Positions 3,209 to 63,168 of a stretch of 64,000 nucleotides of DNA are shown here, one piece after another. Source of the stretch: Gammaproteobacteria bacterium. Lineage in GTDB: Bacteria > Pseudomonadota > Gammaproteobacteria > Arenicellales > UBA868. Numbering within the stretch: the stretch's first letter is position 1; every line of letters begins with the position of its first letter. The stretch is taken from contig JAKUQR010000014.1 of NCBI GenBank assembly GCA_022450155.1, positions 2,539-66,538 of the forward strand, written 5' to 3'. The translations under genes were made by a program, and so were the position numbers. Under the pieces are notes generated by a model, which was not told the DNA's origin, did not search any database, and saw nothing but the letters and a program-made list of their open reading frames with translations.

Positions 3209-3286
3209 ACCTCTTGTTCTTTATCTGATCTATGACCTCAGTTATCCTAACCCAAACCATAAGCAAAATAACTTAGGTAGTCGAGA

Positions 3287-4105: not shown

Positions 4106-4151
4106 GACTCACCTGGCCACTGCCGACAACACGGTAAGTCATAAATCCACG

Positions 4152-4937: not shown

Positions 4938-5015
4938 CCTGGGGTTCGGGTATACCGGTGCACTTCAGCACCAGCCACTAGAGAAACGTTCCCTTAAGCG
5001 TGGTGGCAAAAGCGG

Positions 5016-6320: not shown

Positions 6321-6375
6321 AACTCAGTCTTCAGCGTCTACGCCAGAACGTAAACAAACACCGAAACCTACCACA

Positions 6376-7296: not shown

Positions 7297-7336
7297 CGCA
7301 GTCGTTCCTTTTAGAGGTGTCTTTTTAAACAGCTTA

Positions 7337-7765: not shown

Positions 7766-7781
7766 TTCCAAAAGCCTTCGG

Positions 7782-8216: not shown

Positions 8217-8244
8217 CCCCTCAATTTTGATTTAGTTCGGCACG

Positions 8245-44033: not shown

Positions 44034-44112
44034 GACGCACTACCCGGAAGCTCACGGTTAATAAAATGAGGTGGCATTTACTGTTCATGACGTACCCGAC
44101 AACAATTCTCCT

Positions 44113-44793: not shown

Positions 44794-45022
44794 CTGTCAC
44801 TCCCAGAGAATAAATCAACTGACAATCACGAGCCCCTGTACCACAGCGTCAGGTGACCTGGTCAGTCTAACGCCGCAGGCTCGCGGCAACCCATCCTCTG
44901 AACAAGCCGCGCAGTGCATGATCAGTATACAACAGCGGCTTGAATATTAAGTCCTTACGGACCTACCTGACATCGCCAACGCCAACACAGGTGGTTGCGA
45001 TATCTACGCGGTACAAAAGTCG

Positions 45023-46003: not shown

Positions 46004-46187
46004 GAATTTTTCTCCTTTTCCAACAATCCAGTTGATTTTAACAAAGCGAACCTCTCCATAAATAGCCGACTTGATCGACACGGCAAGATCATCTAGCTGT
46101 AAAGGCACTACTGCAAGGCTGTACATCACTTGACGCGAGGCCTCGGGCCTGCAAGGCTTTACCGACTTAAATAAAGGTACTTACTTC

Positions 46188-47393
46188 ATGGCAACTACTG
46201 AGCTACACATTGAAGACCCCTACAACGCGATGATCCCCGGTAGTAACATTTGTATCGGTGGCAAACAGGACCAGCCCTTAAGTAATCTTCGTTTTGTTGT
46301 GAAGGACCTGTTTGACGTCGCTGATATGCCTACCGTAGCGGGTAGTCCAGACTGGCCAAGCACAAGGCCTGTGCCTGATGAACATGCCGCAATTGTCACC
46401 CAACTACTAGATGCAGGTGCCAAACTCATTGGCAAAACTATCACTGATGAGATTTCACTGGGGATTTTGGGCGAGAACAAATTCGATGGGACGCCCGAAA
46501 ATCCGGCCTGCCCTGGTCGCGTTCCGGGTGGATCATCAGCTGGATCTGCGGCAGCGGTCGCAGGCGACTATTGTGATTTTGCTTTGGCCTCTGACACGGG
46601 AGGGTCCGTACGTGTGCCAGCCAGTTTTTGTGGAATCTACGGTATCCGACCAACCCACGGTCGCCTGAACTTGGATGGACTGATGCCGCAGGCTCCTTCA
46701 TCCGACACCGCTGGTTGGTTTGCACGCAGTGCGGAGACCCTCTCTCGAGTTGGCCGCGTGCTTTACCAAGAAGATATTCCAGATCGTCTTAACCATCGAC
46801 TGCTGATCGCACGTGATGCTTTCGCTTATAGCGGCAGCGAAACTCAAACAGCGTTGGCACCAGGACTAAACCGCCTCAGCAAACTATTTAGAGAAGTCAC
46901 TGAAGTTGATATGGCGCTGAATGGACTTGATCAGTGGTCCGAAGCACAAAGAACAGTCCAGGCTGCCGAGTTCTGGCAGACCTTTTCGGATTGGATCGAC
47001 CGCCACAACCCCAGAATGTCCTATTCTGTCGCACGAAATCTATTCATCGCATCCAAAATAGAATCGTCGGTGCTTGAATCAGCACAACTAGTGAAACAAC
47101 AGGCGACCGAACGAATGAAATCACTGCTACCCCGTGGAACACTGCTGTGCCTGCCCACAACCCCATTCTGCGCCCCTCGCGTTAATCTACCAATTCATGA
47201 GACCGACGCACTTCGTCTACAGATTTCTGTATTGTGCTGCCATGGCGGCCTCACCGGTGTACCTCATGTCTCGATACCCGGTGCTACCACCGGACCAGAT
47301 CATGCACCGATCGGCCTGTCTATCATCGCTGGACATAATTACGATACTGACCTTCTTGCAGCCAGCCTAGCACTGGAGGCACAACATGACTGA
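46188..47393 (+). CDS. short amidase-signature family amidase (AtzE/malonamidase-like size)
   Basis: GGSSAGSAAAVAG...SDTGGSVRVPASFCG amidase signature. 401 aa. Confidence 0.85.
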   Translation: MATTELHIEDPYNAMIPGSNICIGGKQDQPLSNLRFVVKDLFDVADMPTVAGSPDWPSTRPVPDEHAAIVTQLLDAGAKLIGKTITDEISLGILGENKFDGTPENPACPGRVPGGSSAGSAAAVAGDYCDFALASDTGGSVRVPASFCGIYGIRPTHGRLNLDGLMPQAPSSDTAGWFARSAETLSRVGRVLYQEDIPDRLNHRLLIARDAFAYSGSETQTALAPGLNRLSKLFREVTEVDMALNGLDQWSEAQRTVQAAEFWQTFSDWIDRHNPRMSYSVARNLFIASKIESSVLESAQLVKQQATERMKSLLPRGTLLCLPTTPFCAPRVNLPIHETDALRLQISVLCCHGGLTGVPHVSIPGATTGPDHAPIGLSIIAGHNYDTDLLAASLALEAQHD

Positions 47394-47793
47394 AGACCTT
47401 GAAGTCAACCGCCCGGAAGTCGTGGATGAGATAACCCTACTGTTCGAGGCCTACGAAGCGGCCCTAGTCGACAAAAATATTGAAGTCCTGGATAACACTT
47501 TCTGGGACAGCGAACACACAATCCGTTACGCCATGCACGAAAACGGCTACGGATTTGATGAGATCCATCGACACCGGGTTTCGAGAAAGAAGGGGCCCGG
47601 CATCAAAGAAGAGCGACGACGGTTGGAGATTCTGACGCTGGGCGATCGCTTTGCGACGGTCAACCTTGAGTTCAAGATCAGAGGGACAAAAGACATCGGT
47701 AGACAAAGCCAGACGTGGATCAAGTTCCCCACTATTGGCTGGAAAGTGGTCACAGCGCATGTCTCGACAATGGAGAAGCACCCCCGCTGGTAA
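47386..47793 (+). CDS. small accessory protein translationally coupled to the amidase (possible NTF2-like fold)
   Basis: The start ATGACTGA overlaps the amidase stop by 8 nt. 135 aa. The fold assignment is tentative. Confidence 0.5.
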   Translation: MTEDLEVNRPEVVDEITLLFEAYEAALVDKNIEVLDNTFWDSEHTIRYAMHENGYGFDEIHRHRVSRKKGPGIKEERRRLEILTLGDRFATVNLEFKIRGTKDIGRQSQTWIKFPTIGWKVVTAHVSTMEKHPRW

Positions 47794-47839
47794 GATCACG
47801 GGCTCTCTTAACAAGCAACCCTTCACAATTCCACCGAAA

Positions 47840-48544
47840 ATGACAGAAAACGCATCAACCTGGGAACCGGCACACAACGTTTCCGCCGCAATCACCACAC
47901 GCCACTCCATCCGGAACTTCCTGTCGACTCCTATCCCTCGGGAAGCTATCGAGGAAATCCTCTCAGTTGCCCGGCGCGCGCCGAGTGGCACCAATATGCA
48001 GCCCTGGTGGGTGTATGTCGTGACCGGTGATGGGAAAAACAAATTGTCTGCCGCACTGGCCAAGGCCCATGACGTCGGTGCTTCTGCCTGGACGCCGGAG
48101 TACCAGTACTATCCTAGCGATTTTCAGGAACCCTATAAGTCAAGACGGCGAAAAGTAGGCTGGGATTTGTATGGTCTGCTGGGCATTGAGCGTGGCCAAA
48201 AAGAAAAAATGCATCAACAGCATGGCCGAAACTTTCGATTCTTCGACGCTCCGGTAGGCCTGATGTTTACGGTCGACCGGGAGCTGAAAATCGGCAGCTG
48301 GCTGGACTACGGCATGTTTATTCAAAACGTGATGCTGGCAGCCAGAGAAAAAGGGCTTCACACCTGCCCTCAGGCAGCATTTACCGGTCATCACCAGGTC
48401 ATCCGTGACTGTCTTCCGATGCCGGATGAACAATCCCTGGTGTGCGGGATGTCACTGGGCTATGCTGACCCTGATGCCATCGAGAACAGCCTTATCACTG
48501 AGCGGGAACCCGTTGATTCATTTACCCGCTTCATCGATAGTTAA
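47840..48544 (+). CDS. nitroreductase-family flavoprotein
   Basis: RHSIRNF...P nitroreductase N-terminal motif. The start was set at the internal ATG 47840 (MTENASTWEP...). The upstream part of the ORF overlaps the preceding gene in another frame. Confidence 0.8.
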   Translation: MTENASTWEPAHNVSAAITTRHSIRNFLSTPIPREAIEEILSVARRAPSGTNMQPWWVYVVTGDGKNKLSAALAKAHDVGASAWTPEYQYYPSDFQEPYKSRRRKVGWDLYGLLGIERGQKEKMHQQHGRNFRFFDAPVGLMFTVDRELKIGSWLDYGMFIQNVMLAAREKGLHTCPQAAFTGHHQVIRDCLPMPDEQSLVCGMSLGYADPDAIENSLITEREPVDSFTRFIDS

Positions 48545-48564
48545 GCTTATTCTGTCGCCGGAGG

Positions 48565-48861
48565 TTGCCTATGCCTGACAAAAGACCCGCCGCCACTCCG
48601 ACGGTGCAAATCGACAATGACAACACCATTGTCACGGAATGGCGCTTTCCACCGCACGGAGAAACCGGCTGGCATGTGCACCAGTACGACTATGTTGTTG
48701 TTCCTCTAGTCACTGGCGAACTGCAGCTTGAAACACCGGATGGGGAGCACCTGGCTGAACTGGTCACCGGTCAAGCCTACGCACGCAAGGCCGGTGTCGA
48801 GCACAATGTGATCAACAACAACGATTTCGAATTCGTATTCATAGAAATTGAACGCAAATAA
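48565..48861 (+). CDS. cupin-2 domain protein
   Basis: 98 aa. GWHVHQYDYVVV...H single-cupin motifs. Confidence 0.65.
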   Translation: MPMPDKRPAATPTVQIDNDNTIVTEWRFPPHGETGWHVHQYDYVVVPLVTGELQLETPDGEHLAELVTGQAYARKAGVEHNVINNNDFEFVFIEIERK

Positions 48862-48893
48862 CCCAGGTCATACAACTGAGCAAGGAATTCACC

Positions 48894-49544
48894 ATGACGG
48901 ATACCGTACCCACACAGACCTATTCTGAACTAAACGCCCTGCGCACGTTCATGGGAAAACCTTCCGAACTTGCGACCAAAAAAAGCATCACCCGGCTTGA
49001 CAAACACTGTCGTGAATTCATCAGTCGATCACCATTCGTCTGCATCGGCACGACCGATGGCACCGGCAAAGCCGACGTGAGCCCCAAAGGTGACCCACCC
49101 GGGTTCGTACAGGTACTGGACGATAAAACACTCTTTATCCCGGACCGCCCGGGCAACAACAGAATCGATTCAATGTCGAACCTACTCAAAGATCCGGCCA
49201 TCGCCTTACTATTTCTGATACCCGGCTTTGACGAAACACTCCGAGTTAATGGCAAAGGCACCGTAATTCGTGATGAAACTCTCAACGCAACCAGCACGGT
49301 TAAAGGCCGGTCACCCAAGATCGGTATCAAGGTGCAAGTTGATTCCGCATTTCTGCATTGCGCGAAAGCGCTCAAACGATCCCATTTGTGGGACCCCAAA
49401 AGTATTCAGAATCGGCAAGAAATGCCCAGTCTGGGTCGAATGATCATCGAACAGACCACACCGCCCGGCACAACGGCCGATCAGGCGGATATCTCAGATG
49501 CCGATGACCACGTCCAAGAGAGTATCCGTTCGCATTTGTATTGA
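48894..49544 (+). CDS. pyridoxamine 5'-phosphate oxidase-like FMN-binding (split-barrel) protein
   Basis: PFVCIGTTDGTGKADVSPKGD... N-terminal split-barrel signature. 216 aa. Confidence 0.65.
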   Translation: MTDTVPTQTYSELNALRTFMGKPSELATKKSITRLDKHCREFISRSPFVCIGTTDGTGKADVSPKGDPPGFVQVLDDKTLFIPDRPGNNRIDSMSNLLKDPAIALLFLIPGFDETLRVNGKGTVIRDETLNATSTVKGRSPKIGIKVQVDSAFLHCAKALKRSHLWDPKSIQNRQEMPSLGRMIIEQTTPPGTTADQADISDADDHVQESIRSHLY

Positions 49545-49589
49545 CGGTCTCTGCGGGTGCCCCCGCTGACAGTGAGGCAACAGACTCAA

Positions 49590-50036
49590 TCAGGTCATAC
49601 CTTCAAGCTTCTGGATCTTCTCGACCAGACCTGGCGGGAAATCACATTTTTTCTGCTTGCCGTAGTCGAAACCGACAATGACCGCCTTACTGTGGGCCGC
49701 AACCTTCTGATGATTACAGCTGAACACAACATGCTGTATGACAAAATAATCTTTTCCCAGCTCAATGACTTTTCCACCCACCAGGACTTTATCCGGCCAG
49801 GTCAGGGGTAGACGAAAGTTGCAATCTATAGACTTGAGTATGCCGGTTCTACCCGATTGCGCACCCATCGATTGCAGTTTCACTTTCTCGAAATACCCAA
49901 ACCGGGCCGTCTCCATCCAGCGGACATAGACGGTGTTGTTAACGTGCTGCATCGAATCCATCTCGCCCCACACGACCGGCAGTTCTACCACCACCGGGAA
50001 AGTATCGTAAACCGCCTGTTCGCTGAATAATTCCAC
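49590..50036 (-). CDS. hotdog-fold acyl-CoA thioesterase (YbgC/4HBT family)
   Basis: 148 aa. WGEMDSMQHVNNTVYVRWMETAR... 4HBT catalytic-Asp region. Confidence 0.7.
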   Translation of the reverse strand: MELFSEQAVYDTFPVVVELPVVWGEMDSMQHVNNTVYVRWMETARFGYFEKVKLQSMGAQSGRTGILKSIDCNFRLPLTWPDKVLVGGKVIELGKDYFVIQHVVFSCNHQKVAAHSKAVIVGFDYGKQKKCDFPPGLVEKIQKLEGMT

Positions 50037-50086
50037 AACTAATAAGATTTAAGTTCGCACTCTGACTATTTCAAATGCAATCTGTA

Positions 50087-51049
50087 CTATTGCGGACAAA
50101 TCTCGCACAGCAGCTCGATATTGCGCCGGCCCTCTTCGCCGGACACCTCTGGGTCCCGACCGTCTTCGATCGCAGAAACAAAGTCTGCAATCTCACCGGC
50201 GTAGGGATTGACTTCGGTAAATGTAATCTGACCGCTGTCAGTATCAATCCGGCCCCCTCCTCCTCGGCCAATAGTTTCGGAACAGTAGGCATAACCTGTG
50301 GTGCCACAGATTTCACCGCGATTGGGTGCCGCAAACAGGGCCGATGACACAAACTGGGCCACAGCACCGGATTCGAACTGAAGACTGACCGCGGCGGATT
50401 CGTCGTGGGCACTGCCCAGCACATTTCGGGTGATGGTGCTCGCGACCTCTGTCACCTCACCGCACACCGGCACCAGCATCCAGCGCAACCAGTCTAGGCT
50501 GTGTGTTCCGACGCCAGCCAGGCTCCACCAGCGCCCAACTTCATCGTGGGCCCGCCAGTTGGCCGCGTTGGATGCTTGAAATGTCCATTGCGCACGCGCA
50601 TGACGGATATCACCGAAGTCACCGGCATGTACGCGCGCAGCAAGTTCCCGGTGACCCAGGTGCCATCGTAAGTGGTAGGCAACGCCCAGTCGAACATCAG
50701 CGCTTCGGCATGCCTGGATCATGGCATCAGCATCTTCGACAGTAGTGGCCATGGGTTTTTCCACCAGAACGTGCTTACCCGCAGCTGCTGCTGCTATGGT
50801 TTGCTCGGCATGCAGCTTGTCTGGTGTAGCAATCACCACGGCATCGAGGTCTGGATCAGATAGAAAATGCTTCAGGTCATCGAAAGCCGGCGTCGGGGAA
50901 GCCGCGTCGTGCTCTTGTGCAAAGCGGGCGGCATTCGCCTTATCTCGGCTGAGCACGCTCCACAATGTGGCGCCATCAACTTCACCGATGGCTGGCGTCA
51001 GTGCATCACGACTGATGCTGCCTGTTCCAATTATTCCGAGTCTCAACAT
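50087..51049 (-). CDS. Gfo/Idh/MocA-family NAD(P)-dependent oxidoreductase
   Basis: MLRLGIIGTGSISRD... Rossmann start and EKP motif (HVLVEKPMA). Confidence 0.8.
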   Translation of the reverse strand: MLRLGIIGTGSISRDALTPAIGEVDGATLWSVLSRDKANAARFAQEHDAASPTPAFDDLKHFLSDPDLDAVVIATPDKLHAEQTIAAAAAGKHVLVEKPMATTVEDADAMIQACRSADVRLGVAYHLRWHLGHRELAARVHAGDFGDIRHARAQWTFQASNAANWRAHDEVGRWWSLAGVGTHSLDWLRWMLVPVCGEVTEVASTITRNVLGSAHDESAAVSLQFESGAVAQFVSSALFAAPNRGEICGTTGYAYCSETIGRGGGGRIDTDSGQITFTEVNPYAGEIADFVSAIEDGRDPEVSGEEGRRNIELLCEICPQ

Positions 51050-51295
51050 GGTTTACCCCAAAGTGCAAAACGTCGATTCTACCCTCGCGCAAACCATTTA
51101 CAATACGATTACAACAAGCCGCCGGCCATCACTGCCCGCACGATTCCAGAGTGACTTGATTCCAGATCGGTGCCAAATTGTGTTCGATCGCTGTGGACCA
51201 ATCTGTAGTCTACGCGGGTCGCAAAGCCCTTTCGCTCAACGCATAGACACCGTAATATTACAGTGACGTCTGATTCAGACCCCGGGAGTCACGTC

Positions 51296-52084
51296 ATGAA
51301 ACTTGATTGCGATCAGATAGAACAATTTAATTCCGAAGGGTATTTATTTATCCCAGGCTGTTTCTCGGCTACAGACGCATCCCGGCTGCTCCAGGAATCC
51401 AATAAGGTTTACGCCATGGCCCGGGAAGAAGTTGTTCGTGAAAAAAGTGGTGTTGCCCGTACTGCTTTTGCAGCACACACCTACAATGAGGGATTTCGCC
51501 TACTGGGCGCTCATCCGCGCCTGATTAAACCTGTCATGCAGCTACTCGACGAAGACGTCTACATGCACCAATACAAAGTCAATGCGAAAGCCGCATTTGA
51601 CGGGGAAGTTTGGCAATGGCACCAGGATTTCGGGACCTGGCATCGTGATGACGAAATGCCAGAACCCCGTGCCATGAACATTGCTATCTATCTGGACGAT
51701 GTCACCGCAGCCAATGGGCCACTACTGTTTATACCCAGAAGTCACAAGGATGGCACGCTGCCTGCTGGACATGACATCGAGACAACGTCGTACCCGCTAT
51801 GGACTCTGGACAGGGAAACCGTGACCCGGTTGGCTGAACAGGGTGGCATCGCAGCACCGGTGGGCAAGGCCGGTTCCATGGTGATATTCCACTGCAATTT
51901 GGTCCACGCCAGCCCACCCAATATCAGCCCTTTCGGCCGCACGATCGTATACTTAAGTCTTTGTGCGGTATCGAACCATATCCGTCGTTATAAACGGGCC
52001 GAGTTTATCGCCCACCGGGATTTCACCCCGATCGTTCCACTGGCTGACAACTGTTTGAGTGATCTGGGAGCAGAGTCTGCTTAG
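51296..52084 (+). CDS. PhyH-family 2OG/Fe(II) dioxygenase with ectoine-hydroxylase (EctD)-like signature
   Basis: WQWHQDFGTWHRDDEMPEP matches the EctD consensus signature W-H-x-D-F-x-T-W-H-x-x-D-x-M-P. The start was placed at ATG 51296 (GGGAG RBS) rather than the GTG at 51263. Confidence 0.75.
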   Translation: MKLDCDQIEQFNSEGYLFIPGCFSATDASRLLQESNKVYAMAREEVVREKSGVARTAFAAHTYNEGFRLLGAHPRLIKPVMQLLDEDVYMHQYKVNAKAAFDGEVWQWHQDFGTWHRDDEMPEPRAMNIAIYLDDVTAANGPLLFIPRSHKDGTLPAGHDIETTSYPLWTLDRETVTRLAEQGGIAAPVGKAGSMVIFHCNLVHASPPNISPFGRTIVYLSLCAVSNHIRRYKRAEFIAHRDFTPIVPLADNCLSDLGAESA

Positions 52085-52194
52085 GGCTGCCCACCCCCAA
52101 ATAACCGGGTTGCGTCACGAGCAGTGCCTGCCAGGCCAGCTTGCACTCTGTAATCCAAAACCTAACGTCTTAATCTCTTCGAATTCAGTACAGC

Positions 52195-53403
52195 ATGACC
52201 AACAGACTCAAAATTAACGGTACCCGTTTTCTCGAGGACCTCGATGCGCTGCGTGAATTCGGAAAACAAGGAATAGGCGTCGTCCGTCCCGCTTTCTCCG
52301 CACCGGATATCGCATCTCGGCGATGGCTGGCCAAAAAATTTGAAGCCTGTGGATTGATACCCCACTGGGACCCGGCTGCTAACCTGTTTGGTCTGCCACC
52401 CCAGTCGGGTCAGCCCATATTAATTGGCTCCCACTCCGACACCCAGCCCGAGGGGGGCTGGCTGGACGGTGCCTATGGCGTGATCCTTGCACTCGAAGTG
52501 GCCCGGTCCAGTCAGGAGTCCGGCGGTCCTCCAGTCGCTGTTGTTTCATTTCAGGATGAAGAGAGTGCATTCATGCCGCTGACCGGCAGTCGCTACTTCA
52601 GCAGGCATTTAAACCTTGATGCCTTATACGACCTGACCAATGCCGCGGGACAGCGTTATGGTGACGAGGCAACAGCGCTGCCGGAGCTCCAGGGGGTTGA
52701 GCCGCTGGAAACCAACTATTTCAGTCATTTTCTTGAGGCCCATATCGAACAAGGGCCCGTACTGGATCTCGCCAATGAGACTATCGGGGTCGTGGAGACA
52801 ATCGTCGGCAGTCGCCAGTTCGAAGTCGTGATTGAAGGACAACAAAATCATGCCGGTACAACGCCGATGTCATTGCGGCGCGATGCCGTAACCGGATTTG
52901 CGGCCTTTGTTGCCGCTCTGGAGCAGCGCTATACAGCTGCCGCTACGCCTCGTTCGGTGTGGACCATTGGCCGGGTACAAGTCCATCCCAATGCGCCCTC
53001 TATCGTGCCGGGCAGTGTCAGCTGTTCTGTCCAGATGAGAGACGGCGCGTTGAGCCAGCTGGACTTGATGTGCGAGATCACACGGGATACAGCACAAGAA
53101 ATTGCCGAGGCACGAAACCTGAAGATTTCATTAGCCCAAAACAAATCTGTTGAACCGGTCGACATGGATGAACGCGTGATCAGTGCTTTTTGTGAAGCGG
53201 CTAACCTGAACGCTCCTGGACGCTGGCGCCGTATGCCGTCGGGTGCTCTACACGACGCCATGAACCTCGCTGACCATATGCCAACCGGCATGCTGTTTGT
53301 GCCTTCGATCGGTGGTGTCAGTCATGCCTTCGAAGAGGATACCCGCAGGGACGATCTGGTTGCCGGGGTCCAGGTTGTGGCCGATACCGTAACTAAGCTG
53401 TAG
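52195..53403 (+). CDS. M20-family Zn-dependent amidohydrolase (allantoate amidohydrolase / N-carbamoyl-L-amino-acid hydrolase type)
   Basis: GSHSDTQP...GG metal-binding region and overall AmaB/AllC-like architecture. 402 aa. Confidence 0.8.
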
Positions 53404-55126
53404 TTGCCTCTTCCAAGCCGAGTTCTTCCGCCATCTTTGCCCGCATGATGAACTTTTGCGGCTTACCGGTCACTGTCATCGGGAACTCCTGGACCGTGTG
53501 GACATACCGGGGAATTTTGAAATGTGCGATTTGCCCGTTGCAATAGTTATAGACGTCATCAACCGACAACTCAATACCCTGGGCCGGAATGATCCAGGCA
53601 CAGATCTCTTCACCGTATTTTTCGTCTGGAATTCCGAAAACCTGGACGTCCTGAATCCCGGGATGGCCGAGCAAATACTCCTCAATCTCCCGCGGATAGA
53701 CATTCTCCCCACCTCGGATCAGCATGTCTTTCACCCGTCCGACAATGTTGCAGTACCCCTGCGAATCAATAGTGGCGAGATCACCCGTATGCATCCATCC
53801 ATCAGCATCAATAGACTCGGACGTGCGCTCCGGGTCGTCCCAGTAACCCCCCATGACCAGATAACCGCGGGTGTGCAGTTCACCTTGTTCTCCGACCACA
53901 ACCGTCTCGCCCGACTCATTCACAACTTTGGCTTCGACATGAGGATGAATCGTGCCAACCGTGGATACCCGCCTCTCAATCGGGTCGTCTACAGCACTCT
54001 GGAAGGAGACTGGGCTGGTCTCGGTCATACCATAGGCGATGGTCATTTCTTCGAGGTGCATCTCCGAAACGACGCGTTTCATCAGTTCAATTGGACAAGG
54101 TGCACCAGCCATAATGCCGGTCCGAAGGGTACGCAGGTCAAATTCACCGATATCCGGTCGATTCACCATCGCATTGAACATGGTCGGCACACCATGAACA
54201 CCCGTACAGCGTTCTTGGTGCATGGTCTGAAGGGTCTGAAGCGGATCGAATCCCTCGCCGGGAAACACCATCGTGCTACCAGTCGAGACACAGGCGAGGT
54301 TGCCTAACACCATACCGAAACAATGATACAACGGCACGGGTATGCACAGCCGGTCCTTGTGATTCAACCGCATTGAGTTCGCAACAAAACGCGCATTATT
54401 GACCACGTTACGATGAGTCAGGGTCGCGGCCTTGGGCGAGCCCGTGGTGCCAGACGTAAACTGCAGGTTAATGGCGTCGACCGCAGACAGCATCCGCCCG
54501 ATCGCGTCTAGCCGGGCCCGCTGGCCGGCATTGTCCTGCATAACGATGTCCTTGAAGCGGAACATGCCGTCGACTTCGTCATTGCCCATGTGAATGACGC
54601 TCTTAAGAGAGGGGAGCCGGGCAGCTGCGAGCTGTCCTGGACGGCAACTCGTGAGCTCTGGTGCGAGATCCTGGAGCATTTCAAGGTAATTACTGGTCTT
54701 GAACGTCTCGGCAGTAATCAACGCCTTAGCACCGGACTTGGCCAGCGCGTACTCCAGTTCCGTCCGCCGATAGGCCGGGTTGATGTTCACCAGTATGGCG
54801 CCGATACGCGCTGTGGCAAATTGAGTAAGCACCCATTCTGGCCGGTTGGGTGCCCATATACCGACCCGATCACCTTTGTAGATACCCAGAGCAAGAAGTC
54901 CTGCTGAAAGCTGATCGACCTTCTGCGCGAGCTGATCCCAGGTCCAGCGCTCGCCAAATTCAGAAAAGATACAGGCATCCCGGTTGCCATGCCTGGACAC
55001 GGTCCGGGCAAGGAAACTTGAGATTGTGATGTCTTCCAGGGCGGGCTCTGCTGTCCCTTTAACATGCGCCAGATTCGATCCGGAAACAAACCCAGACTGC
55101 TCTGATCCTGATTCAACTTCGACCAT
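53393..55126 (-). CDS. AMP-dependent acyl-CoA synthetase/ligase
   Basis: AMP-binding motif [12 protein letters not shown], the GYGMTE region and the C-terminal G-K-x-x-K (GKPQK). 577 aa. Confidence 0.85.
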
Positions 55127-55154: not shown

Positions 55155-57497
55155 CTACATCTGCTTCCAGTCCCCTAATTGCTCAAAGGCATGCGCAGCC
55201 TGGTAGATGGTAGATTCACCGTAGTGACGGCTGATTAACATCATCCCGACTGGCAGGCCTTCACTCATCCCGCAAGGAACCGACATCGCTGGATGCCCCG
55301 TGACATCAAATGGACTGGTATTCGCGAGCATCTCGAACGCTCTCTGACAATACAAAGCCAGCGATGCATCTGGTGGCGGCAATGGCGTCGCTTTCATCGG
55401 CAATGTCGGCATTAAGAAAAGATCATACTGGCTGAGCGAGTCGTTGTAGGTCTCTTTCAGCTTGCGGCCCAGGTTCTGTGCCTTGGCATAGTAGTGACCC
55501 CGATAATGCCGGAGAAAATATTCACCAACGAACATGCTGATCTTGAGTGTGTCAGACAACTCGTCGGCACGATTCGGCCAGTTTGAATGGTGGTCGAGCA
55601 GGCTAGTCGAGTAAAGACCTTTCCAACCTGTACCAAAGCCATTACCCTTCATCATCTGATTGGTCAGGCCTTCCAGTGCTATCGGGGTCCAGATGGCCGC
55701 TCCCTCGTTGTGCATGGGAATCGATATTTCTTCCACATCTGCTCCCAAATCACGGAGTTTGTCAGCGGCTGTTCGAACCTTTGTATCAACATCAGACTCT
55801 GATTCAGGGCGACCGAATCCCTCCTGCACTACACCAATTTTAAGTCCCCGTACGCCACGACCCAAAGCTGATGTGTAGTGATCCACTTGGGGTGAATATT
55901 GGCGGGGGTCGAGACCATCTTTTCCCGCAATAACTTCAAGCAGCAGCGCGTTGTCGGCGACATTCTGGGTCATGGGTCCAGTATGGTCGATGGTAGTTTC
56001 AATAGGCATAACGCCGGTGTAAGGGACAAGTCCGTGAGTGGGTTTTAGACCATAACATCCACAGTAGGCTGCAGGCATTCGGATCGATCCACCCTGGTCA
56101 CCACCCATGGCCATGTCGACTTCACCGGAAGCCACCAAGGCACCGGAGCCTGAAGACGAACCTCCAGCCGAGTAACCCCTCTTGTGGGGGTTGTGACAGG
56201 GCCCCGTTGCATTGGTATGACTTCCACCAGAAAGGCAAAAATATTCGCAGTGTGCTTTTCCGACAATAGTGCCGCCTGCATCCAGAATACGGGTTACGAT
56301 AGTGGCATCGATATCGGGAATGTAGCCTTCTAGGGTTGAAGCACCATTCATCATCGGCACACCTGCAAGACTGATGTTATCTTTAAGGACAATCGTCCTC
56401 CCAGCCAGAGGTCCACGGGGTGCTCCCTTCACTTCGCACTTGATATACCAGGCATTCAGGGGATTCTCCTCGGGCGAAGGCCGATATCCCGGTGTTCTCG
56501 GGTAATCAACGGTCGGCAGGTAATCGGGCATCGCGTCAACTACGTCGTAGACTTTCATGGTGTCTTCCATGACGTCTAGAAACTCTGTAATCCGTTCGTC
56601 CGAAAGGTGCATTCCGAAATCCAGCGTGATCTCTCTGAGTTGTTCCTGAGTCGGTCTCTTAACAGTCATGTACGTATACCTCTCTTTGTCGGTTGGTGCA
56701 GTCGGTAGGGACTGGCTGACAGTTGGTGTGGTTTCCCTGGTGAGTTCTGTATGGGAGGTGGAAATTGACATCAAGGCCCCAGATCCGAAACCTACAAATT
56801 CTTCGATCAGTGCCGATTCGGATGAGTGCCCATCACCGACTTCGCCGATGATATCGCCTTTCTGCAGCAGCAGTACACGGTCAGACAACGAGGTGACGAA
56901 CTCAAGGTTCTGCTCAACAAGCACGATCGCGAGCCCTTGCTCTGTATTCAGCCTTTTGAGTAGATCACTGATGCCGTCAATGATGGATGGCTGTATACCT
57001 TCTGTGGGCTCATCCAGGAGCACCAGGTCTGGTTTGCTGATTAGGCAGCGTGCGAGGGCAAGAATCTGCTGCTCACCACCGCTCAAAGCTCCTCCAGACC
57101 GATCGAGCAGTGGCTGGAGAGCCGGAAATTCCTGAATGACAGCTTCGATTGCCTCGTGCTCTTCCTCTCCATGTTCCACGACTCCCATCCTGAGATTGTC
57201 GTAGACCGATAGCTGAGGAAATATCCCACGGCCCTGTGGAACATAACCCAACCCAAGCCGGGATCGTTCGTATGCCGGTTCGTCAGAAATATCCACCCCG
57301 TCGAACTCTATTCGACCAGAGGTTGCCGGAACGATACCCATCAACGTTTTGAGCAGAGTAGTCTTGCCCATGCCGTTGTGTCCCAACACCCCAACGATTT
57401 GACCTTCGTTGACAGAGAAATCGATGCCATGAAGCACGGGTACTCGACCATAACCCGCGTGCAGGTCCCGAACATTGAGGATCAGCGCTTCACTCAT
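55155..57497 (-). CDS. fusion protein: N-terminal LivF-type ABC transporter ATPase plus C-terminal amidase-signature amidase
   Basis: aa 1-~235 carry Walker [10 protein letters not shown], signature [15 protein letters not shown] and Walker B LVLLDEP. A ~35-aa linker follows. aa ~270-780 carry [14 protein letters not shown]...[16 protein letters not shown]. The ORF is continuous with no stop between domains. An internal ATG (56669) preceded by GAGAGG also exists. Confidence 0.85.
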
Positions 57498-58219
57498 TGT
57501 ACTTTCCTCTGGCCAAGATAGATCTCACGAACCCTGTCGTCCGCGGACACTTCATCCATACCACCCTCTATCAAGATTTGTCCTTGGTGAAAGACGGTGA
57601 CTCTTCGCGCGATCATGCGAATAAACTGCATATCGTGCTCCACAACGATCATCGTTGCGCTCTTGTTAATTTCCTGGATGATATCGGCAGTTCGTATGAC
57701 CTCGTCCTGGGTCATCCCAGCAGTAGGCTCATCCAAAATCACCAACCAGGGTTCACCTGCGAGAACCATACCCAGTTCAACCTGTTGTCTCTGGCCATGA
57801 GCCAGTGATCCAAGCTGTGCTGTCCGAACATCACCCAGTTGAAGTCGCTCAATGACCTCAGAGGTAATCACGCGCGCGCGCTTTATGCTGGCCGACTGGC
57901 TGGCCGACAACCAGATATTCTCTTCTACGTCTAGACCGTCAAATACATTTGGCACTTGTGTCTTAATGCCTACCCCCATTTTCGCCACCTGATGTGGCTC
58001 ACTGCCGGTCACATTGAAGTTCCGGATGAGAACATCACCGGCTGTAGGGCTCAACTGGGCGGTAAGACACTTAAAAAACGTGCTTTTACCCGCACCATTT
58101 GGACCAATCAGGCAGCGTAATTCATTCTCGCGCAGAGAAAAGTCCACACGGTCTACTGCCACGACGCCGCCAAAATGCATTGACAGGTTCCGGGTTTCGA
58201 GTACGACGTCACTCCTCAA
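57494..58219 (-). CDS. LivG-type ABC transporter ATP-binding protein
   Basis: Walker A GPNGAGKST, signature LAHGQRQQVELGM and Walker B LVILDEP. The start was re-called to TTG 58219 with a perfect AGGAGG SD 6 nt upstream. The GTG at 58249 would overlap livM by 41 nt. Confidence 0.8.
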   Translation of the reverse strand: MRSDVVLETRNLSMHFGGVVAVDRVDFSLRENELRCLIGPNGAGKSTFFKCLTAQLSPTAGDVLIRNFNVTGSEPHQVAKMGVGIKTQVPNVFDGLDVEENIWLSASQSASIKRARVITSEVIERLQLGDVRTAQLGSLAHGQRQQVELGMVLAGEPWLVILDEPTAGMTQDEVIRTADIIQEINKSATMIVVEHDMQFIRMIARRVTVFHQGQILIEGGMDEVSADDRVREIYLGQRKVQ

Positions 58220-59270
58220 CTGCGGCCTCCTTGACTCGGGATCGCCCACGACGCCTTATTCTTTTCGCGGAGCGAGCTGTCATCCGACGGGAGCGCCTTC
58301 GGTCCCATAGCTGCACCAGGGAGGGAACGATGCCCTTGGGAACGACCAGTACAAAAATGATCAGAACGAGACCAAGGAAAAAATTGATATTGACCACAGC
58401 CTGGCGACCAAGAAAAGAGGTGAGATAAAACAGGACCAAGGCCCCGAGAATCGGCCCAATTAGCGTTCCTCGCCCCCCAATAATGACCCAGATTATAGCC
58501 AGTGCCGCGTTATACAGATTGTAAACATCCGGGGTAATTCGGCCGATTGAATTCGCAAACATGACGCCGGCCAGTCCCGCGATGGCACCGCCAACAGTAA
58601 ACATTCCTAACTTATATAGGCGAATGTCGTAACCCAAAAGCTCCGAACGAATTTCATTCTCTCTGATAGAAACAGAAACTCGACCAAAATGGGACTTTGT
58701 CAGCCATACACAAAGGAAATACGCGCCCAGCAATGAGACCATGGCAACGTAGAACACGTCCTCGGGAAATAGAAACTGATTCGCATCCCAGGGATAATTA
58801 ATTGGCGGCACGTTGATCCCGTTAAAACCGCCAATTTTTGCGATCCCAATTTTATACTCAGGACCAGAGGTCCGCCTGATGACGCTGTAGAGAATGAGCG
58901 TTACTGTCAGGGTGATCACGGCCAGGTAGACGTCGCTCAAACGTCCGTAGAACATAAAGTAGCCTAGAACAGCCGCGGCGGCGCCGGCAACCACTATCGC
59001 GAGAACAATTGCACCTGTACTACCTCCAAAGTTCAGTGCTGCGATAGCGTACGCATAAGCACCAATACCAAAAAATGCTGTTTGTCCAAAACAAAGAATT
59101 CCCCCAAAACCCCAGATCAGCCCTAGGCTCAACGCCAGTATGGCAAGACTGACCGCAGTAGTCAGACTGATGATCCCAAAAAGATCAAGCGTCTGCGGTG
59201 CGCCAAATAAGATGATCAGCCCGACTATCCCGATCGAGATAAGCGCGTTCGTATCCCGAGATCGTTTCAC
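58209..59270 (-). CDS. LivM-type branched-chain/amide ABC transporter permease
   Basis: 353 aa, ~10 TM segments, LivM-like conserved loop. Arg-rich C-terminal tail. Confidence 0.85.
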   Translation of the reverse strand: MKRSRDTNALISIGIVGLIILFGAPQTLDLFGIISLTTAVSLAILALSLGLIWGFGGILCFGQTAFFGIGAYAYAIAALNFGGSTGAIVLAIVVAGAAAAVLGYFMFYGRLSDVYLAVITLTVTLILYSVIRRTSGPEYKIGIAKIGGFNGINVPPINYPWDANQFLFPEDVFYVAMVSLLGAYFLCVWLTKSHFGRVSVSIRENEIRSELLGYDIRLYKLGMFTVGGAIAGLAGVMFANSIGRITPDVYNLYNAALAIIWVIIGGRGTLIGPILGALVLFYLTSFLGRQAVVNINFFLGLVLIIFVLVVPKGIVPSLVQLWDRRRSRRMTARSAKRIRRRGRSRVKEAAVEE

Positions 59271-60136
59271 AGACTTCGCTTGAAGAAGCGGCCGGTGATG
59301 CCCTGAGGCATCAACCGAAGCAGAACGATCGCGAGCAGGAGCAGTGCTACTTCACCCATGGTTGGACCGATCACAAAACTGATGATGCCGTTAACCCCGC
59401 CTAACAGAATCGAGGCCGCAGCAGTACCCGCCAGGATCGCAGTGCCGCCAGAGATGACCGTAATGAATGCCTTTCCGATATAAATTGCCCCGATCGTTGG
59501 CAGGATACCGGTAATGGGTGCCAGCAATCCGCCAGCGAGACCTGACAGCGCAGCACCAATCCCAAAAGTCATGGAGTAGACGCGCTGTGTGCTAATACCC
59601 AGCGCAGCGGCCATATCAGCTGCCTGCATGGTTCCACGGGCAACCAGTCCCAGCTTCGTGTAACGCAACAGAAGATACAGCAGCAGGATCAGGATGATCG
59701 CCACAAAAATTAGGAAAACCTCGTACCCGCTGGAACTGAACTCGCCAATGGGAATTGGACCAAACGGTGCAGATATTGTCGTGGTCGTCTGGGCTCCGAA
59801 TATGGTGGTAATGAGTCCGATAAAAAGCAGGCTCAGTCCCCATGTTGCCAGCAGGGTATCGACCATACGGCCGTATAGAAACCGTATCAGTACCCATTCG
59901 ACGATCAGGCCAATGAGACCAACAACCAGCGGTGCCAGGATGAACATCGCTACCCAGATATTTACGCCGCTGTTTGTTGACACGATGACCGTGTAACCGC
60001 CCAACATCAGGAACTCACCATGGGCGAGGTTGATAACCCGCATCATGCCGAAAATAACCGCCAACCCGATGCTTATAAGCACCAGGTTGGCGATGCCATA
60101 GATGATTTGCAGCGTAAGAGCTGCAAAAAGATCCAC
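59267..60136 (-). CDS. LivH-type ABC transporter permease
   Basis: 289 aa polytopic permease with 4-nt overlap to livM, the typical livHM arrangement. Confidence 0.85.
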   Translation of the reverse strand: MDLFAALTLQIIYGIANLVLISIGLAVIFGMMRVINLAHGEFLMLGGYTVIVSTNSGVNIWVAMFILAPLVVGLIGLIVEWVLIRFLYGRMVDTLLATWGLSLLFIGLITTIFGAQTTTTISAPFGPIPIGEFSSSGYEVFLIFVAIILILLLYLLLRYTKLGLVARGTMQAADMAAALGISTQRVYSMTFGIGAALSGLAGGLLAPITGILPTIGAIYIGKAFITVISGGTAILAGTAAASILLGGVNGIISFVIGPTMGEVALLLLAIVLLRLMPQGITGRFFKRSL

Positions 60137-60173: not shown

Positions 60174-61427
60174 TTAATCGATTCCAGCCGCCTTTAACCC
60201 ATTTTCAAAATAAAACGTTGACTGATTAGGTTGTGCAATCAGATCACAAACCAGCTGGGTATCTGTCGGCTGTTGTTGCTCGTAAGTCTGGATAATGTTG
60301 AATTTTTGATCTTTCAATTCAGCCAAGTAGACATTCTGGACCACGTGGTGGGTCTGGGGATCAATTGTGATTTTTCCACTTGGCCCGTTAATACTCGTCG
60401 GTGCATCCAGTGCCTCGATCACCTTCATCCGATCAGCAGTTCCCGCGGCTTTAACAGCTTCTGCCCAAAGATAAATACCCTCATACTGACGGGCGGCAAG
60501 CTCGTTCAAATAGGGTGCGTCAGCTCCGAATCTAGCCTGGAACCGATCGACGAAGGCCTTATTGTCCGCCGATTCAATTTCCTCAAAATAACTGTAAGCG
60601 ACGATCATGCCATCGCCTTCTTCTGCAGAAATCATCAAGTGTTCATTACCAACACCAAAGGTAGTAGATGCAATCGGAACACTCTTGTTCATGCCGGCAG
60701 CAGCATACTGTCTGTAAAACGACACATGGGCACCACCGACCAACGCAGACATGACCATATCCGGCTTGGCTGCCTGGATCTTTTTGATGGTTGGTCCAAA
60801 GTTGGTCACATCAAGTGGGAAAAATTCCGTTTCGACAGGGTCACCACCATTGTCACGGACATATTTCTGGACCCAGTCGGCAGTGATGTGGCCGTAGTTG
60901 TAGTCAGCCGCAATGATGTAAACCTTCTTACCCCAATTGTTCATTGTATAGGGCACAAGTTTTTCTACGGTCTGGCCCGGTGTTGAACCTGTGCAATAGT
61001 TATTGGTATCGCAGACACCGCCTTCATACAGGGTATTGTAAAAATAAAGGGTACGGTATCGGCTCAATAATGGCCTGATTGACTCACGTGATGCTGATGT
61101 GATGCCAGCCTGAACAACATCCACCTTGTCACTGGTAGCGGCCTTTGTCGCGTATTGCGTATAGAACTGAATAGTCGACTGTGGATCGTAGACCGTCAGG
61201 TCCACCTGCTTGCCCAACAATCCACCTGCTGCATTGATCTCTTCGACTGCCAAATGACTCGCATCCACCATCGGTCTACCGTAGATATCAAGACCGCCAG
61301 ACTGATCTAAAATCACAGCCATCTTTAGCGCATCAGCCGCCTGAGCTTGTCCGATAAACGCTGGGGCTGTCAGTACCGTGGCAGTTGCCGAGGCTCCTTT
61401 TAGAAAGTTTCTTCGATTGATTGTCAT
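60174..61427 (-). CDS. LivJ/AmiC/UrtA-type periplasmic substrate-binding protein with Tat signal
   Basis: The start was set at ATG 61427 (MTINRRNFLKGASATATVL...AQA), which has a GGAGA RBS. Twin-arginine motif present. Type I periplasmic-binding fold. Confidence 0.85.
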   Translation of the reverse strand: MTINRRNFLKGASATATVLTAPAFIGQAQAADALKMAVILDQSGGLDIYGRPMVDASHLAVEEINAAGGLLGKQVDLTVYDPQSTIQFYTQYATKAATSDKVDVVQAGITSASRESIRPLLSRYRTLYFYNTLYEGGVCDTNNYCTGSTPGQTVEKLVPYTMNNWGKKVYIIAADYNYGHITADWVQKYVRDNGGDPVETEFFPLDVTNFGPTIKKIQAAKPDMVMSALVGGAHVSFYRQYAAAGMNKSVPIASTTFGVGNEHLMISAEEGDGMIVAYSYFEEIESADNKAFVDRFQARFGADAPYLNELAARQYEGIYLWAEAVKAAGTADRMKVIEALDAPTSINGPSGKITIDPQTHHVVQNVYLAELKDQKFNIIQTYEQQQPTDTQLVCDLIAQPNQSTFYFENGLKAAGID

Positions 61428-61521
61428 ATCATTGTCTCCCTTGGTTTTGAATTTGAGCGATCCCACTCCAGAATCGCCATGAACTCCATCTCTATTTCAG
61501 AGTTCTTTACCCCCGAAACGC

Positions 61522-63168
61522 TTATTCGGTGGGATTACTTTTCCACCGATCAAAGGCCTCTTGGTCTTCAGAAGATTCCTCACCGGCCTGGTTACTCGGT
61601 GGATTCGATATCTGATCAGAAATACCCTTAATACCGTCACCAATATTGATGCCGATTTCCTCACCGAGTTTCTTCACTGCAGGCAATTGCAGTGCCATCG
61701 ACAAAACACCATCAACCACCTGGTTGACAACAGCTTTATCCGTACCACTCCCGTCAGAACCACCGCCGGAATTACCAAACCCTGTGACGTGATTGATTCT
61801 GATGCTGTCGATCTTTTCAGCAGGCTTCACCATGCTGTCGACGACCTCGGGTAAGATTTCGAGCTTACGCATATGTAGCTTCATCTCGATAAGATCGTCA
61901 CTTTGACTGTTCTCTGATGCAATCAGGGCAGCTTCTCCTTCGGCACGCGCTATCAGTTGGATCCGTTCGGCCTCTGCCCGCGTCATCGTTGCATCCGCCT
62001 CGGCTTTCGCCATCGCGAGCAGCGTACCTGTCTCACTGCCAACTCGGGTTTCATCAACCTCAGCCTGTTCATGAGCACGGATCATTGCTAATTCCCGTTC
62101 ACGCTCTGCAACCGCAATCTCCCTTACCGTCTCAAGACCTTCTTTAGCCCGAACCTCCTCGGACTTGGCTTCTTCGACTTCGACCTGCGCCTTGGCGACT
62201 TCAGCCTGCTGCGAAGCAATCACAATCTCTCTTTCAAGTCGACGTAATTCTGATGCCTGCGCAGCGTCTAGTTCAGCCCGTCTTATTTCCCGGCCACTCT
62301 GAATCTCCTTCGCTTTGACTTCCTTGTCTTTTTCTATTCGTGCAAATTCCTGCCGCTGCTCAGAGCCAGATCTTTCTTCAGCTATGGCCGCGTCGCTAAC
62401 AGCGCGCTCACGCTCAATGTTTAACTGTTGTTGAATCTGGGCTTCTTCCTCCTCCTGCTCAATGTTCAGGCGCTCCTTCGTGGCGTCCAACTTACTCTTG
62501 CGAACCGCGACATCAGCATCAGCCTCAATGACAGCACGTTCTTTCTTACTGTTTGAAACAATCTCAGCCAATCGACGAAGGCCGATAGCATTGAAGGCAT
62601 TATTTTCGTCGAGTGTATTGAAAGGCGTTTGATCCAGTCGGGTCAAAGAAACCGACTCCAGTATTAGTCCGTTTTGGGACAGGTTTGGCTTCAACATCTC
62701 GTCGACCTGAGCAACGTACCGCCCACGCTCATTTTGGAGTTCGTCCATGGTGTAGTTAGCTGCCACCGACAATATCGCATCTACCAGTTTACCTTCCAGT
62801 GTCTCAGCAAGATCGTCGGGGCGAAATGTCTTGCCGGCTAAAGCCTGGGCCGCTGTCGCAACGCCTGAGTCGCTAGGATCTACTCGTACGTAGAACTCGA
62901 CGGTAACATCTACACGCAAGCGATCAACGGTAATCACAGATGTCTCACCAGAGCGTACAACCTCAAGACGCGTCGTCTTCATATTGACTTCTGAGACGCG
63001 GTGCAGAAACGGAAGAGCAAGAAAGCCCCCATCCGTGATAATTCTTTGTCCGCCAAGACCTGTTCGGATTAACGCAACTTCGCGGGACGCTTTTCGGTAA
63101 AAGCGGTTCAGCAAAACAATCGCCACAATGATGGCGATGACCACTACGATCAACCAGACCCAATACAT
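61522..63168 (-). CDS. flotillin-like SPFH/band-7 protein (second copy, YqiK-like)
   Basis: N-terminal TM helix, SPFH domain and E/A/R-rich coiled coil. Paralogous to 30719..33283. 548 aa. Confidence 0.8.
   Translation of the reverse strand: MYWVWLIVVVIAIIVAIVLLNRFYRKASREVALIRTGLGGQRIITDGGFLALPFLHRVSEVNMKTTRLEVVRSGETSVITVDRLRVDVTVEFYVRVDPSDSGVATAAQALAGKTFRPDDLAETLEGKLVDAILSVAANYTMDELQNERGRYVAQVDEMLKPNLSQNGLILESVSLTRLDQTPFNTLDENNAFNAIGLRRLAEIVSNSKKERAVIEADADVAVRKSKLDATKERLNIEQEEEEAQIQQQLNIERERAVSDAAIAEERSGSEQRQEFARIEKDKEVKAKEIQSGREIRRAELDAAQASELRRLEREIVIASQQAEVAKAQVEVEEAKSEEVRAKEGLETVREIAVAERERELAMIRAHEQAEVDETRVGSETGTLLAMAKAEADATMTRAEAERIQLIARAEGEAALIASENSQSDDLIEMKLHMRKLEILPEVVDSMVKPAEKIDSIRINHVTGFGNSGGGSDGSGTDKAVVNQVVDGVLSMALQLPAVKKLGEEIGINIGDGIKGISDQISNPPSNQAGEESSEDQEAFDRWKSNPTE

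Follow-up and report, generated by a model that had tools for sequence, protein, structure and literature searches.

An in-frame fusion of a UrtE/LivF-like importer ATPase with an amidase-signature amidase, conserved in a flotillin-headed transport cassette of Proteobacteria

Results

The fused gene and its two domains

In this study, we examined a single open reading frame (ORF) and its surroundings in a 64,000-nucleotide stretch of DNA from a gammaproteobacterium (contig JAKUQR010000014.1, positions 2,539 to 66,538), hereafter referred to as the window. The ORF begins with an ATG, runs for 780 aa without an internal stop and joins an ATP-binding cassette (ABC) ATPase to an amidase: Pfam placed ABC_tran at residues 22-165 (PF00005, E 1.8e-34, 119.7 bits) and Amidase at residues 354-764 (PF01425, E 7e-95, 319 bits). 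The original prediction, which named no strand, had described an in-frame fusion of a LivF-type ATPase with an amidase across a linker of about 35 residues, an internal ATG at 56669 with a GAGAGG motif where the amidase begins, and an acyl-CoA synthetase following the fusion. We found all of these elements, on the minus strand: the linker measures 36 aa, the internal ATG occupies 56669..56667 and the GAGAGG 56684..56679, and an acyl-CoA ligase lies 28 nt downstream on the same strand.

Scored against NCBIfam, residues 7-231 matched the UrtE model (TIGR03410) with 268.9 bits, just under its cut-off of 285.8, and the LivF equivalog (NF008626) gave the ATPase domain 159.7 bits against a cut-off of 441, so that "LivF-type" describes the architecture of this domain only. 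The amidase half was assigned more closely, scoring 829.3 bits with the PRK07235 amidase subfamily (NF005565, cut-off 545) over the full length of the model (residues 277-780, model positions 1-506 of 506); the amidase model therefore starts exactly at the internal Met277. Its nearest solved structure is the amidase of Rhodococcus sp. N-771 (3A1K, E 6e-144), to which residues 281-774 align over residues 5-500, including the N-terminal helical domain, whose helices are predicted here at residues 284-322. The domain carries the GGSSSGSG signature and belongs by PF01425 to the amidase-signature enzymes, and its K372, S447 and S471 correspond to K96, S171 and S195 of the Ser-cisSer-Lys triad of 3A1K, the Rhodococcus enzyme known as RhAmidase. 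Other members of the superfamily fit poorly: allophanate hydrolase (141 vs a cut-off of 511), AtzE (190 vs 461) and GatA (285 vs 481) all stayed under their NCBIfam thresholds, as did, by a wide margin, biuret hydrolase. Amidases of this type are encoded in nitrile-hydratase clusters. A 155-aa ORF lies antisense to the linker and ATPase region (56668..57135, plus strand); its translation is of low complexity and we regard it as spurious.

Conservation of the fusion

A search of 5.8 billion protein clusters, for which we report the 120 best matches, returned the same architecture throughout. All 120 clusters carry PF00005 together with PF01425, at lengths of 772-869 aa and 67-99% identity to the query, and many lie on contigs of megabase size; NCBI and JGI name the fused proteins merely "amidase". 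We further scanned one genome per GTDB species, using an alignment of amidase domains, and retained the 80 loci with the highest similarity. Within this set, ranked by likeness to the fused query, 57 loci are fused in one frame, 13 have clearly separate genes, two have the domains in different frames and eight are without an adjacent ATPase, seven of these being stand-alone amidases and one (L026) ending at a contig edge. Fused loci occur in Alphaproteobacteria (Rhodobacterales, Hyphomicrobiales, Rhodospirillales, Minwuia, Ferrovibrio), Betaproteobacteria (Comamonadaceae, Rubrivivax, Rhizobacter) and Gammaproteobacteria (Acidiferrobacteraceae, Nitrincola, Immundisolibacterales), among them the isolates Mesorhizobium zhangyense (L046), Salinarimonas rosea (L049) and Aquibium (L024), and the fused gene is also found on complete Sulfitobacter plasmids. 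Cultured carriers are thus at hand in Sulfitobacter sp. THAF37 (plasmid pTHAF37_e, WP_152467583.1), S. alexandrii, M. zhangyense CGMCC 1.15528 and S. rosea DSM 21201. The closest genome locus, in a metagenome-assembled genome (MAG) of Acidiferrobacteraceae (L001), is 96% identical and likewise has a linker of 36 aa; it probably also hints at the origin of the window. It had been proposed to look for the fusion in orthologues, on the understanding that orthologues encoding always separate genes would speak against it; instead the fusion recurs in the clusters and loci counted above, and separate urtE and amidase genes were found only in a sister clade. By the E-values of its domains and its conservation in more than 100 relatives, the observed fusion is beyond chance; it is a genuine gene fusion, kept by selection.

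Some apparent relatives were set aside. Three proteins from the library clustered at 50% (P0122, P0126, P0136), in which a closely related amidase domain has an OB-fold, an HsdM methyltransferase or a Myb-like domain as its partner, are not members of the family and most likely represent chimeric metagenome contigs. A Cupriavidus locus (L055) had looked like a different fusion on account of its long in-frame N-terminal extension; Pfam shows the amidase only, and the AmiC-like match upstream of it is a separate gene.

Junction, linker and active sites

The alignment of 121 fused proteins, from which the junction and residue counts are taken, has sharp edges on both sides of the linker: the ATPase domain ends in EEFxGFG, the amidase begins with (Y)MTVxRPT, and the segment between them is unalignable. 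Linker length ranges from 28 to 125 aa (median 52, 47 distinct values), always in frame and free of stops, and Ala, Pro, Ser, Thr and Gly together make up 68% of linker residues across the family. An AlphaFold2 model of the protein in the window, built on a 55-sequence alignment, assigns residues 236-277 a predicted local distance difference test score (pLDDT) below 50 and no secondary structure, so that this segment is predicted to be disordered; block means within the ATPase domain mostly lie around 80-90.

The residues expected of a working ATPase, namely K45 (Walker A), Q88 (Q-loop), S139/G140 (signature) and D162/E163 (Walker B), are invariant in all 121 proteins, and so is the amidase triad K372, S447 and S471 (121/121). 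Since the catalytic residues are invariant in both domains, purifying selection acts on each half as an active enzyme, and what joins the halves has been kept as a flexible tether.

The internal start

Met277 is homologous to the true amidase start of unfused genes. An in-frame ATG is present at this ancestral start in 57 of 57 fused loci, and the residue is Met in 117 of the 121 proteins. In the window, the motif preceding it forms a duplex of -9.2 kcal/mol with the anti-Shine-Dalgarno (anti-SD) sequence, stronger than that of any of the 26 other in-frame ATGs of the ORF. Taking a pairing energy with the 16S tail of -5 kcal/mol or lower as the mark of an SD-like motif, we found one before the internal ATG in 88% of fused loci. 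The corresponding shares are 13% for 2,841 windows drawn from the linkers and 27% for 1,660 in-frame ATGs elsewhere in the same genes, and these figures are uncorrected for shared ancestry. The residues encoded by the motif vary by clade (ER, GG, RE, KE, SE, AG), and the persistence of a purine-rich SD despite these varied residues and within an unalignable linker points to constraint at the nucleotide level. This conservation of ATG and motif across the family lends support to the original suggestion that a fused product and separate ones could both exist, and we think it reasonably probable that internal initiation is functional and yields a free amidase besides the full-length protein in most lineages.

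One subclade departs from the pattern. Four of its proteins (P0038, P0041, P0096, P0102) have Lys in place of Met277, and their linkers, of 94, 106, 119 and 125 aa, are the four longest in the family. In L081 (2894..5446), the sole member checked at the DNA level, the SD is lost as well (-3.5 kcal/mol).

The transport cassette and its neighborhood

The fused gene belongs to a cassette of seven genes on the minus strand, whose features are collected in Table 1. It had been called the last cistron of an importer operon; it is indeed the final transporter gene, but the ligase behind it is likely part of the operon too. The original prediction was also silent on the flotillin gene that opens the cassette and is strictly co-conserved with it.

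Table 1. Features of the fused gene and of the cassette around it in the window
Feature	Position	Strand	Evidence
Flotillin/SPFH protein, 548 aa, first cassette gene	61522..63168	-	Pfam Flot PF15975 118 bits, Band_7 PF01145 56 bits
AmiC/UrtA-type periplasmic binding protein, twin-arginine signal	60174..61466	-	Peripla_BP_6 PF13458 277 bits, Peripla_BP_5 PF13433 271.8 bits
UrtB/LivH-like permease	59267..60136	-	BPD_transp_2; TIGR03622 245 bits, cut-off 374
UrtC/LivM-like permease	58209..59270	-	BPD_transp_2; TIGR03727 262 bits, under cut-off
UrtD/LivG-like ATPase, unfused partner of the nucleotide-binding heterodimer	57494..58249	-	ABC_tran, BCA_ABC_TP_C; TIGR03411 246 bits, cut-off 304
Fused ORF, 780 aa: UrtE/LivF-like ATPase, linker and amidase-signature amidase	55155..57497	-	Pfam, NCBIfam, conservation
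Nucleotide-binding domain, residues 1-240, closing with the conserved EEFxGFG motif	56778..57497	-	Invariant motifs, pLDDT
Interdomain linker, residues 241-276 (36 aa), Ser/Thr/Pro-rich here	56670..56777	-	Alignment, pLDDT
Internal SD-like GAGAGG, 9 nt upstream of the internal ATG	56679..56684	-	Anti-SD duplex energy
Internal ATG (Met277), ancestral amidase start	56667..56669	-	NF005565 model start, conservation
Amidase domain, residues 277-780, Rhodococcus N-771 type with N-terminal helical domain	55158..56669	-	PDB 3A1K
Acyl-CoA ligase, 577 aa, 28 nt downstream of the fusion	53393..55126	-	AMP-binding and AMP-binding_C; NF009233 PRK12583 844.7 bits, over cut-off of 832

All ORFs of the fused loci were clustered, and gene order was counted among the loci with enough flank. 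Every fused locus so counted (46/46) has a flotillin gene immediately before the gene for the binding protein, at about -6.5 kb relative to the amidase start (L001-L062), and none of the 13 truly unfused loci has one. Genes for the binding protein, the two permeases and the UrtD-like ATPase precede the fusion with the same constancy (46/46). Downstream, the ligase is found in 46 of 49 fused loci, directly adjoining in 44, and an adjacent ligase is absent from all 13 truly unfused loci.

The individual products fit these names to differing degrees. The flotillin assignment follows from the Pfam matches, and the translation shows a hydrophobic N-terminus (MYWVWLIVVVIAIIVAIVLL). For the binding protein, the TAT_signal model scored 22.2 bits, just under its cut-off of 22.7, and a twin-arginine motif, RRNFLK, is seen in the translation; its start is likelier the ATG at 61427 (MTINRRNFLKG) than the position 61466 of the mechanical ORF list. 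Equivalog models of urea-binding proteins stayed under cut-off for this protein, and its PDB neighbors are 8TG1, urea-binding proteins and AmiC. The GTG start of the UrtD-like gene at 58249 is probably over-extended, with a 41-nt overlap into the UrtC-like gene and a model match beginning at residue 16; at its other end, the stop codon overlaps the ATG of the fused ORF as ATGA. The ligase falls within the "fatty acid CoA ligase family", its nearest PDB matches being fatty-acyl and feruloyl-CoA synthetases. The importer is a member of the HAAT family and a relative of the urea transporter, though not identical with it.

Upstream of roughly half of the fused cassettes lie genes for a MarR regulator and for another AmiC-like protein (Peripla_BP_5/6), the latter with no evident signal peptide, for instance at 1683..3323 in L083 and at -7.2 to -8.9 kb in about 25 other loci; the clade of the window is without this pair, which also accompanies the stand-alone amidases L055, L063, L066 and L079. 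AmiC is among the PDB matches of this extra protein as it is among those of the binding protein, and the pair is probably an amide-sensing regulatory module. Sequence beyond the cassette and sensor genes varies between loci. Neither a urease nor an allophanate hydrolase, nitrile hydratase or aldoxime dehydratase was found in any fused locus or in the window; nitrile hydratase and aldoxime dehydratase neighbors occur only at some unfused or stand-alone relatives (L063, L066, L084). A scan for promoter and terminator consensus sequences gave nothing interpretable, and no compositional anomaly of the cassette was found within the window.

Beside the cassette, positions 41955..53403 of the window hold a block of other catabolic genes for amides and N-heterocycles: hydantoinase A, an isochorismatase-like hydrolase, a luciferase-like monooxygenase, a nitroreductase, a PNPOx-like protein, a Gfo/Idh/MocA oxidoreductase, a PhyH dioxygenase and an M20 amidohydrolase. 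A second, short amidase-signature amidase lies in the same block (46188..47393, plus strand).

Unfused relatives and the origin of the fusion

Orthologous transporter and amidase genes in the same order, left separate, are found in Bradyrhizobium, Roseiarcus and relatives and on the Agrobacterium plasmid pAtAF1_95, at about 58-60% identity for the transporter and about 68-70% for the amidase. In the loci of Bradyrhizobium, Roseiarcus and relatives, the UrtE-like protein ends in ..GEF[VI]GI[AT]T followed by a stop, at the position of EEFxGFG in the fused proteins, and a spacer of 38-74 nt with a small hairpin and a GGGAGA-type SD leads to the amidase ATG. Unlike the fused cassettes, these operons, with their stop and SD spacer, have neither the flotillin nor an adjacent ligase. 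A midpoint-rooted neighbor-joining tree of amidase domains gathers the unfused and stand-alone sequences into one clade and places the fused ones elsewhere, the exception being the stand-alone L055, which is nested among fused proteins. This topology fits a single fusion event by loss of a stop codon, and provisionally we take it that the fusion would have arisen in this way from an adjacent pair of urtE-like and amidase genes.

The two loci with the domains in different frames, L027 (~8115..8997) and L050 (~8072..9004), are nested among fused relatives; in L050 the ATPase frame continues into an Ala/Pro-rich tail of 75 aa, and its stop codon overlaps the start of the amidase as ATGA. Because both carry the flotillin and the ligase, they probably represent fused genes broken either by an indel error in a long-read MAG or by a true secondary fission of recent date. 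The unfused Agrobacterium tumefaciens locus (L084, pAtAF1_95, 2741..13171) places transporter and amidase inside an aldoxime/nitrile cluster, with a phenylacetaldoxime dehydratase on one side and a nitrile hydratase, an accessory protein and cobalt-transport genes on the other, an arrangement from which it follows that in some rhizobia the transporter family is part of aldoxime, nitrile and amide metabolism.

Discussion

Each component of this cassette is known by itself: a HAAT-type importer, an amidase of the RhAmidase subfamily, an adenylate-forming ligase and a flotillin. What is apparently undescribed is the fusion of an importer ATPase to the presumed catabolic enzyme of its own cargo. 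Full-text literature searches found no published description of either the fusion or the cassette; the phrase "ABC transporter" does not occur in a 2024 review of microbial amidases, and a screen of R. palustris binding proteins has nothing on an amidase-fused importer system. The closest relative as a transporter is UrtABCDE, of the HAAT family (LivJHMGF), which shares with the cassette a binding protein, two permeases and two different ATPases in the same gene order, and whose models are the best NCBIfam match of each corresponding subunit. It differs in that all five subunits of the cassette fall under the Urt cut-offs, no urease lies nearby, the UrtE-like subunit carries an enzyme of 500 aa, and a flotillin and a ligase have been added. 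With the Rhodococcus sp. N-771 enzyme, the likeness of the amidase extends from end to end, including the N-terminal helical domain and the triad. RhAmidase is a free cytoplasmic homodimer encoded beside a nitrile hydratase, whereas the present enzyme is tethered to an ATPase and has no nitrile hydratase near it.

Comparable links between amides and transport, or between transport and chemistry, exist in other forms. AmiC/AmiE of Pseudomonas aeruginosa and FmdDEF of Methylophilus tie sensing or uptake of amides through AmiC-type (Peripla_BP_5) proteins to an amidase, as here; AmiE and formamidase, though, belong to the nitrilase superfamily and not to the amidase-signature enzymes, and neither system contains a fusion. 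To our knowledge, the C-terminal accessory domains described on importer ATPases (MalK, MetN, NrtC/CmpC) are all regulatory and non-catalytic. The present protein resembles them in bearing an extra domain at the C terminus of an importer ATPase, and departs from them in that what is appended is an entire catabolic enzyme, attached through a disordered tether. Conversion of a substrate coupled to its translocation is known from peptidase-containing ABC transporters (PCATs), from group translocation by the phosphotransferase system (PTS) and from vectorial acylation by FadL/FadD, which differ from the cassette in transporter class, direction (PCATs export) and chemistry; homology extends only to the ABC fold of PCATs.

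The interpretation we favor, and consider somewhat more than evenly probable, is that the fused protein is an importer ATPase with a tethered, intact amidase, serving import of an amide, its hydrolysis at the transporter and trapping of the resulting acid by CoA. We infer a substrate class, a site of hydrolysis, internal initiation, a pairing of dimers and a role for flotillin, as follows. A Tat-exported AmiC/UrtA-like binding protein would capture a small primary amide in the periplasm, and the ABC transporter would import it at the expense of ATP. The amidase, held at the cytoplasmic exit, would split the amide into ammonia and a carboxylate, which the ligase would convert to its acyl-CoA. 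Import, hydrolysis and CoA activation together would thus trap a neutral, membrane-permeant solute in a manner akin to group translocation. Because small neutral amides cross membranes readily, instant conversion would stop back-leakage, which offers a plausible rationale for the tether. By analogy, the AmiC-type fold that the binding protein shares with the extra sensor suggests an amide ligand. The sequence of amidase and acyl-CoA synthetase, leading from amide through acid to acyl-CoA, is established for nitrile pathways (PMC3511329), and the cassette has the same two enzymes in succession. The same route had been put forward in the original prediction; it fits the synteny and the AmiC-like sensors, while as a pathway it is still one that we infer.

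The internal start would add a second form of the enzyme. RhAmidase is a homodimer of about 107 kDa with the triad K96/S171/S195 (PMC11732141). Given such a homodimer and the fusion of one of two ATPase subunits only, free amidase made from the internal SD and ATG would supply the partner of the tethered one. In lineages without the internal start, amidase dimerization may take place between neighboring transporters. Flotillin, in turn, may cluster the complexes in the membrane, a role suggested by its strict co-inheritance.

Several findings weigh against this interpretation or narrow it. The top scores of the binding protein and the transporter subunits are with urea-transporter models, even though all are under the cut-offs. 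The fused share of 57 in 80 overstates that in the wider amidase family, since the loci were ranked by similarity to a fused query, and clustering at 50% leaves a single full-length fused representative (P0121), so the fused family is compact and sits within a much larger family of stand-alone amidases. The ligase is missing in three fused loci. The AlphaFold model of the amidase domain is moderate (mean pLDDT 71) and uninformative on the docking of the domains, and a flexible tether of 28-125 aa means proximity rather than a sealed channel, so that any kinetic benefit is hypothetical. As to the second product, the existence of the Met-to-Lys clade shows internal initiation to be dispensable, and conservation of the SD-like motif could stem from translational pausing or, in part, from shared ancestry.

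Among the alternatives, the one that survives best, though we consider it rather unlikely, concerns the cargo, which might not be a simple primary amide but a urea derivative, a nitrile, an aldoxime, or a fatty or aromatic amide whose hydrophobic acid would explain the flotillin and the fatty-acyl-type ligase. That the best scores of the transporter subunits are with urea-transporter models and that an unfused relative sits in an aldoxime dehydratase/nitrile hydratase cluster would suit such a cargo, as would the family of the ligase and its structural matches to fatty-acyl and feruloyl-CoA synthetases; RhAmidase has a preference for benzamide. Against such a cargo, every urea-transporter equivalog stays under its cut-off and the allophanate and biuret hydrolase models fall far short of theirs, and none of the four enzymes urease, allophanate hydrolase, nitrile hydratase and aldoxime dehydratase accompanies the fusion in the fused loci or the window. 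The ligase type does leave room for larger or aromatic amides.

It is unlikely, in our estimation, that the fusion is real and serves only co-expression or stoichiometry, with the linker cleaved or the internal start dominant, so that hydrolysis would occur in the bulk cytoplasm, uncoupled from transport. The conserved internal SD and ATG are what such a scheme would require, the long, disordered and low-complexity linker could be protease-sensitive, and unfused operons evidently function in Bradyrhizobium and Agrobacterium. Nevertheless, an operon with translational coupling would already co-express the two proteins. That the frame has been held through 47 linker lengths, and that fused genes persist in three proteobacterial classes, speaks for selection acting on the covalent connection itself. 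The Met-to-Lys clade, moreover, retains the fusion after losing the internal start.

Still less probable, indeed improbable, is a mainly regulatory or sensory role for the amidase domain, in which it would gate transport in response to cytoplasmic amide or acid, much like the C-terminal domains of MalK, MetN and NrtC/CmpC. Its C-terminal position matches theirs; however, neither the Ser-cisSer-Lys triad nor the GGSS motif varies in any sequence (121/121), the PRK07235 amidase model is matched over its full length, a tether that is long and disordered lends itself poorly to allosteric coupling, and the acid-activating ligase downstream implies real turnover. Finally, an assembly artefact, in which a stop was lost or a frameshift introduced between separate livF-like and amidase genes, might be imagined from the unfused relatives with a stop and a spacer of 38-74 nt and from the frame-shifted L027 and L050 within fused clades, where indel errors or fissions do happen, but it is effectively excluded because the in-frame fusion recurs in 120 independent clusters and 57 independent loci, including isolates and complete plasmids, with a linker of about 36 codons where a spacer would have about 40 nt and with the same 36-aa linker length in a MAG of 96% identity.

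Beyond an importer ATPase with a tethered amidase, the observations can be arranged into a more elaborate picture, which is possible and which we hold only tentatively: a flotillin-organized "transport metabolon" with group translocation through an ABC importer, in which two products are deliberately translated from the fused ORF and each transporter bears a heterodimer of tethered and free amidase, and in which lineages lacking the internal start would compensate by longer tethers that pair neighboring transporters within flotillin domains.

If import and hydrolysis are linked as we propose, uptake would be physically coupled to the first metabolic step, a design principle unlike that of regulatory accessory domains, and, once confirmed, the cassette would represent a natural and genetically simple bacterial transport metabolon. 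Natural fused and unfused orthologues, the conserved internal start and a clade without that start provide experimental handles, and the strict co-inheritance of flotillin connects a bacterial flotillin, at the level of genomes, with one particular client complex, a connection that is rare and open to testing. For annotation, hundreds of database entries labelled only "amidase" conceal an ABC ATPase domain. As the cassette is widespread in marine, soil and wastewater Proteobacteria and is carried on plasmids, it is probably of importance to how organic nitrogen in the form of amides is turned over.

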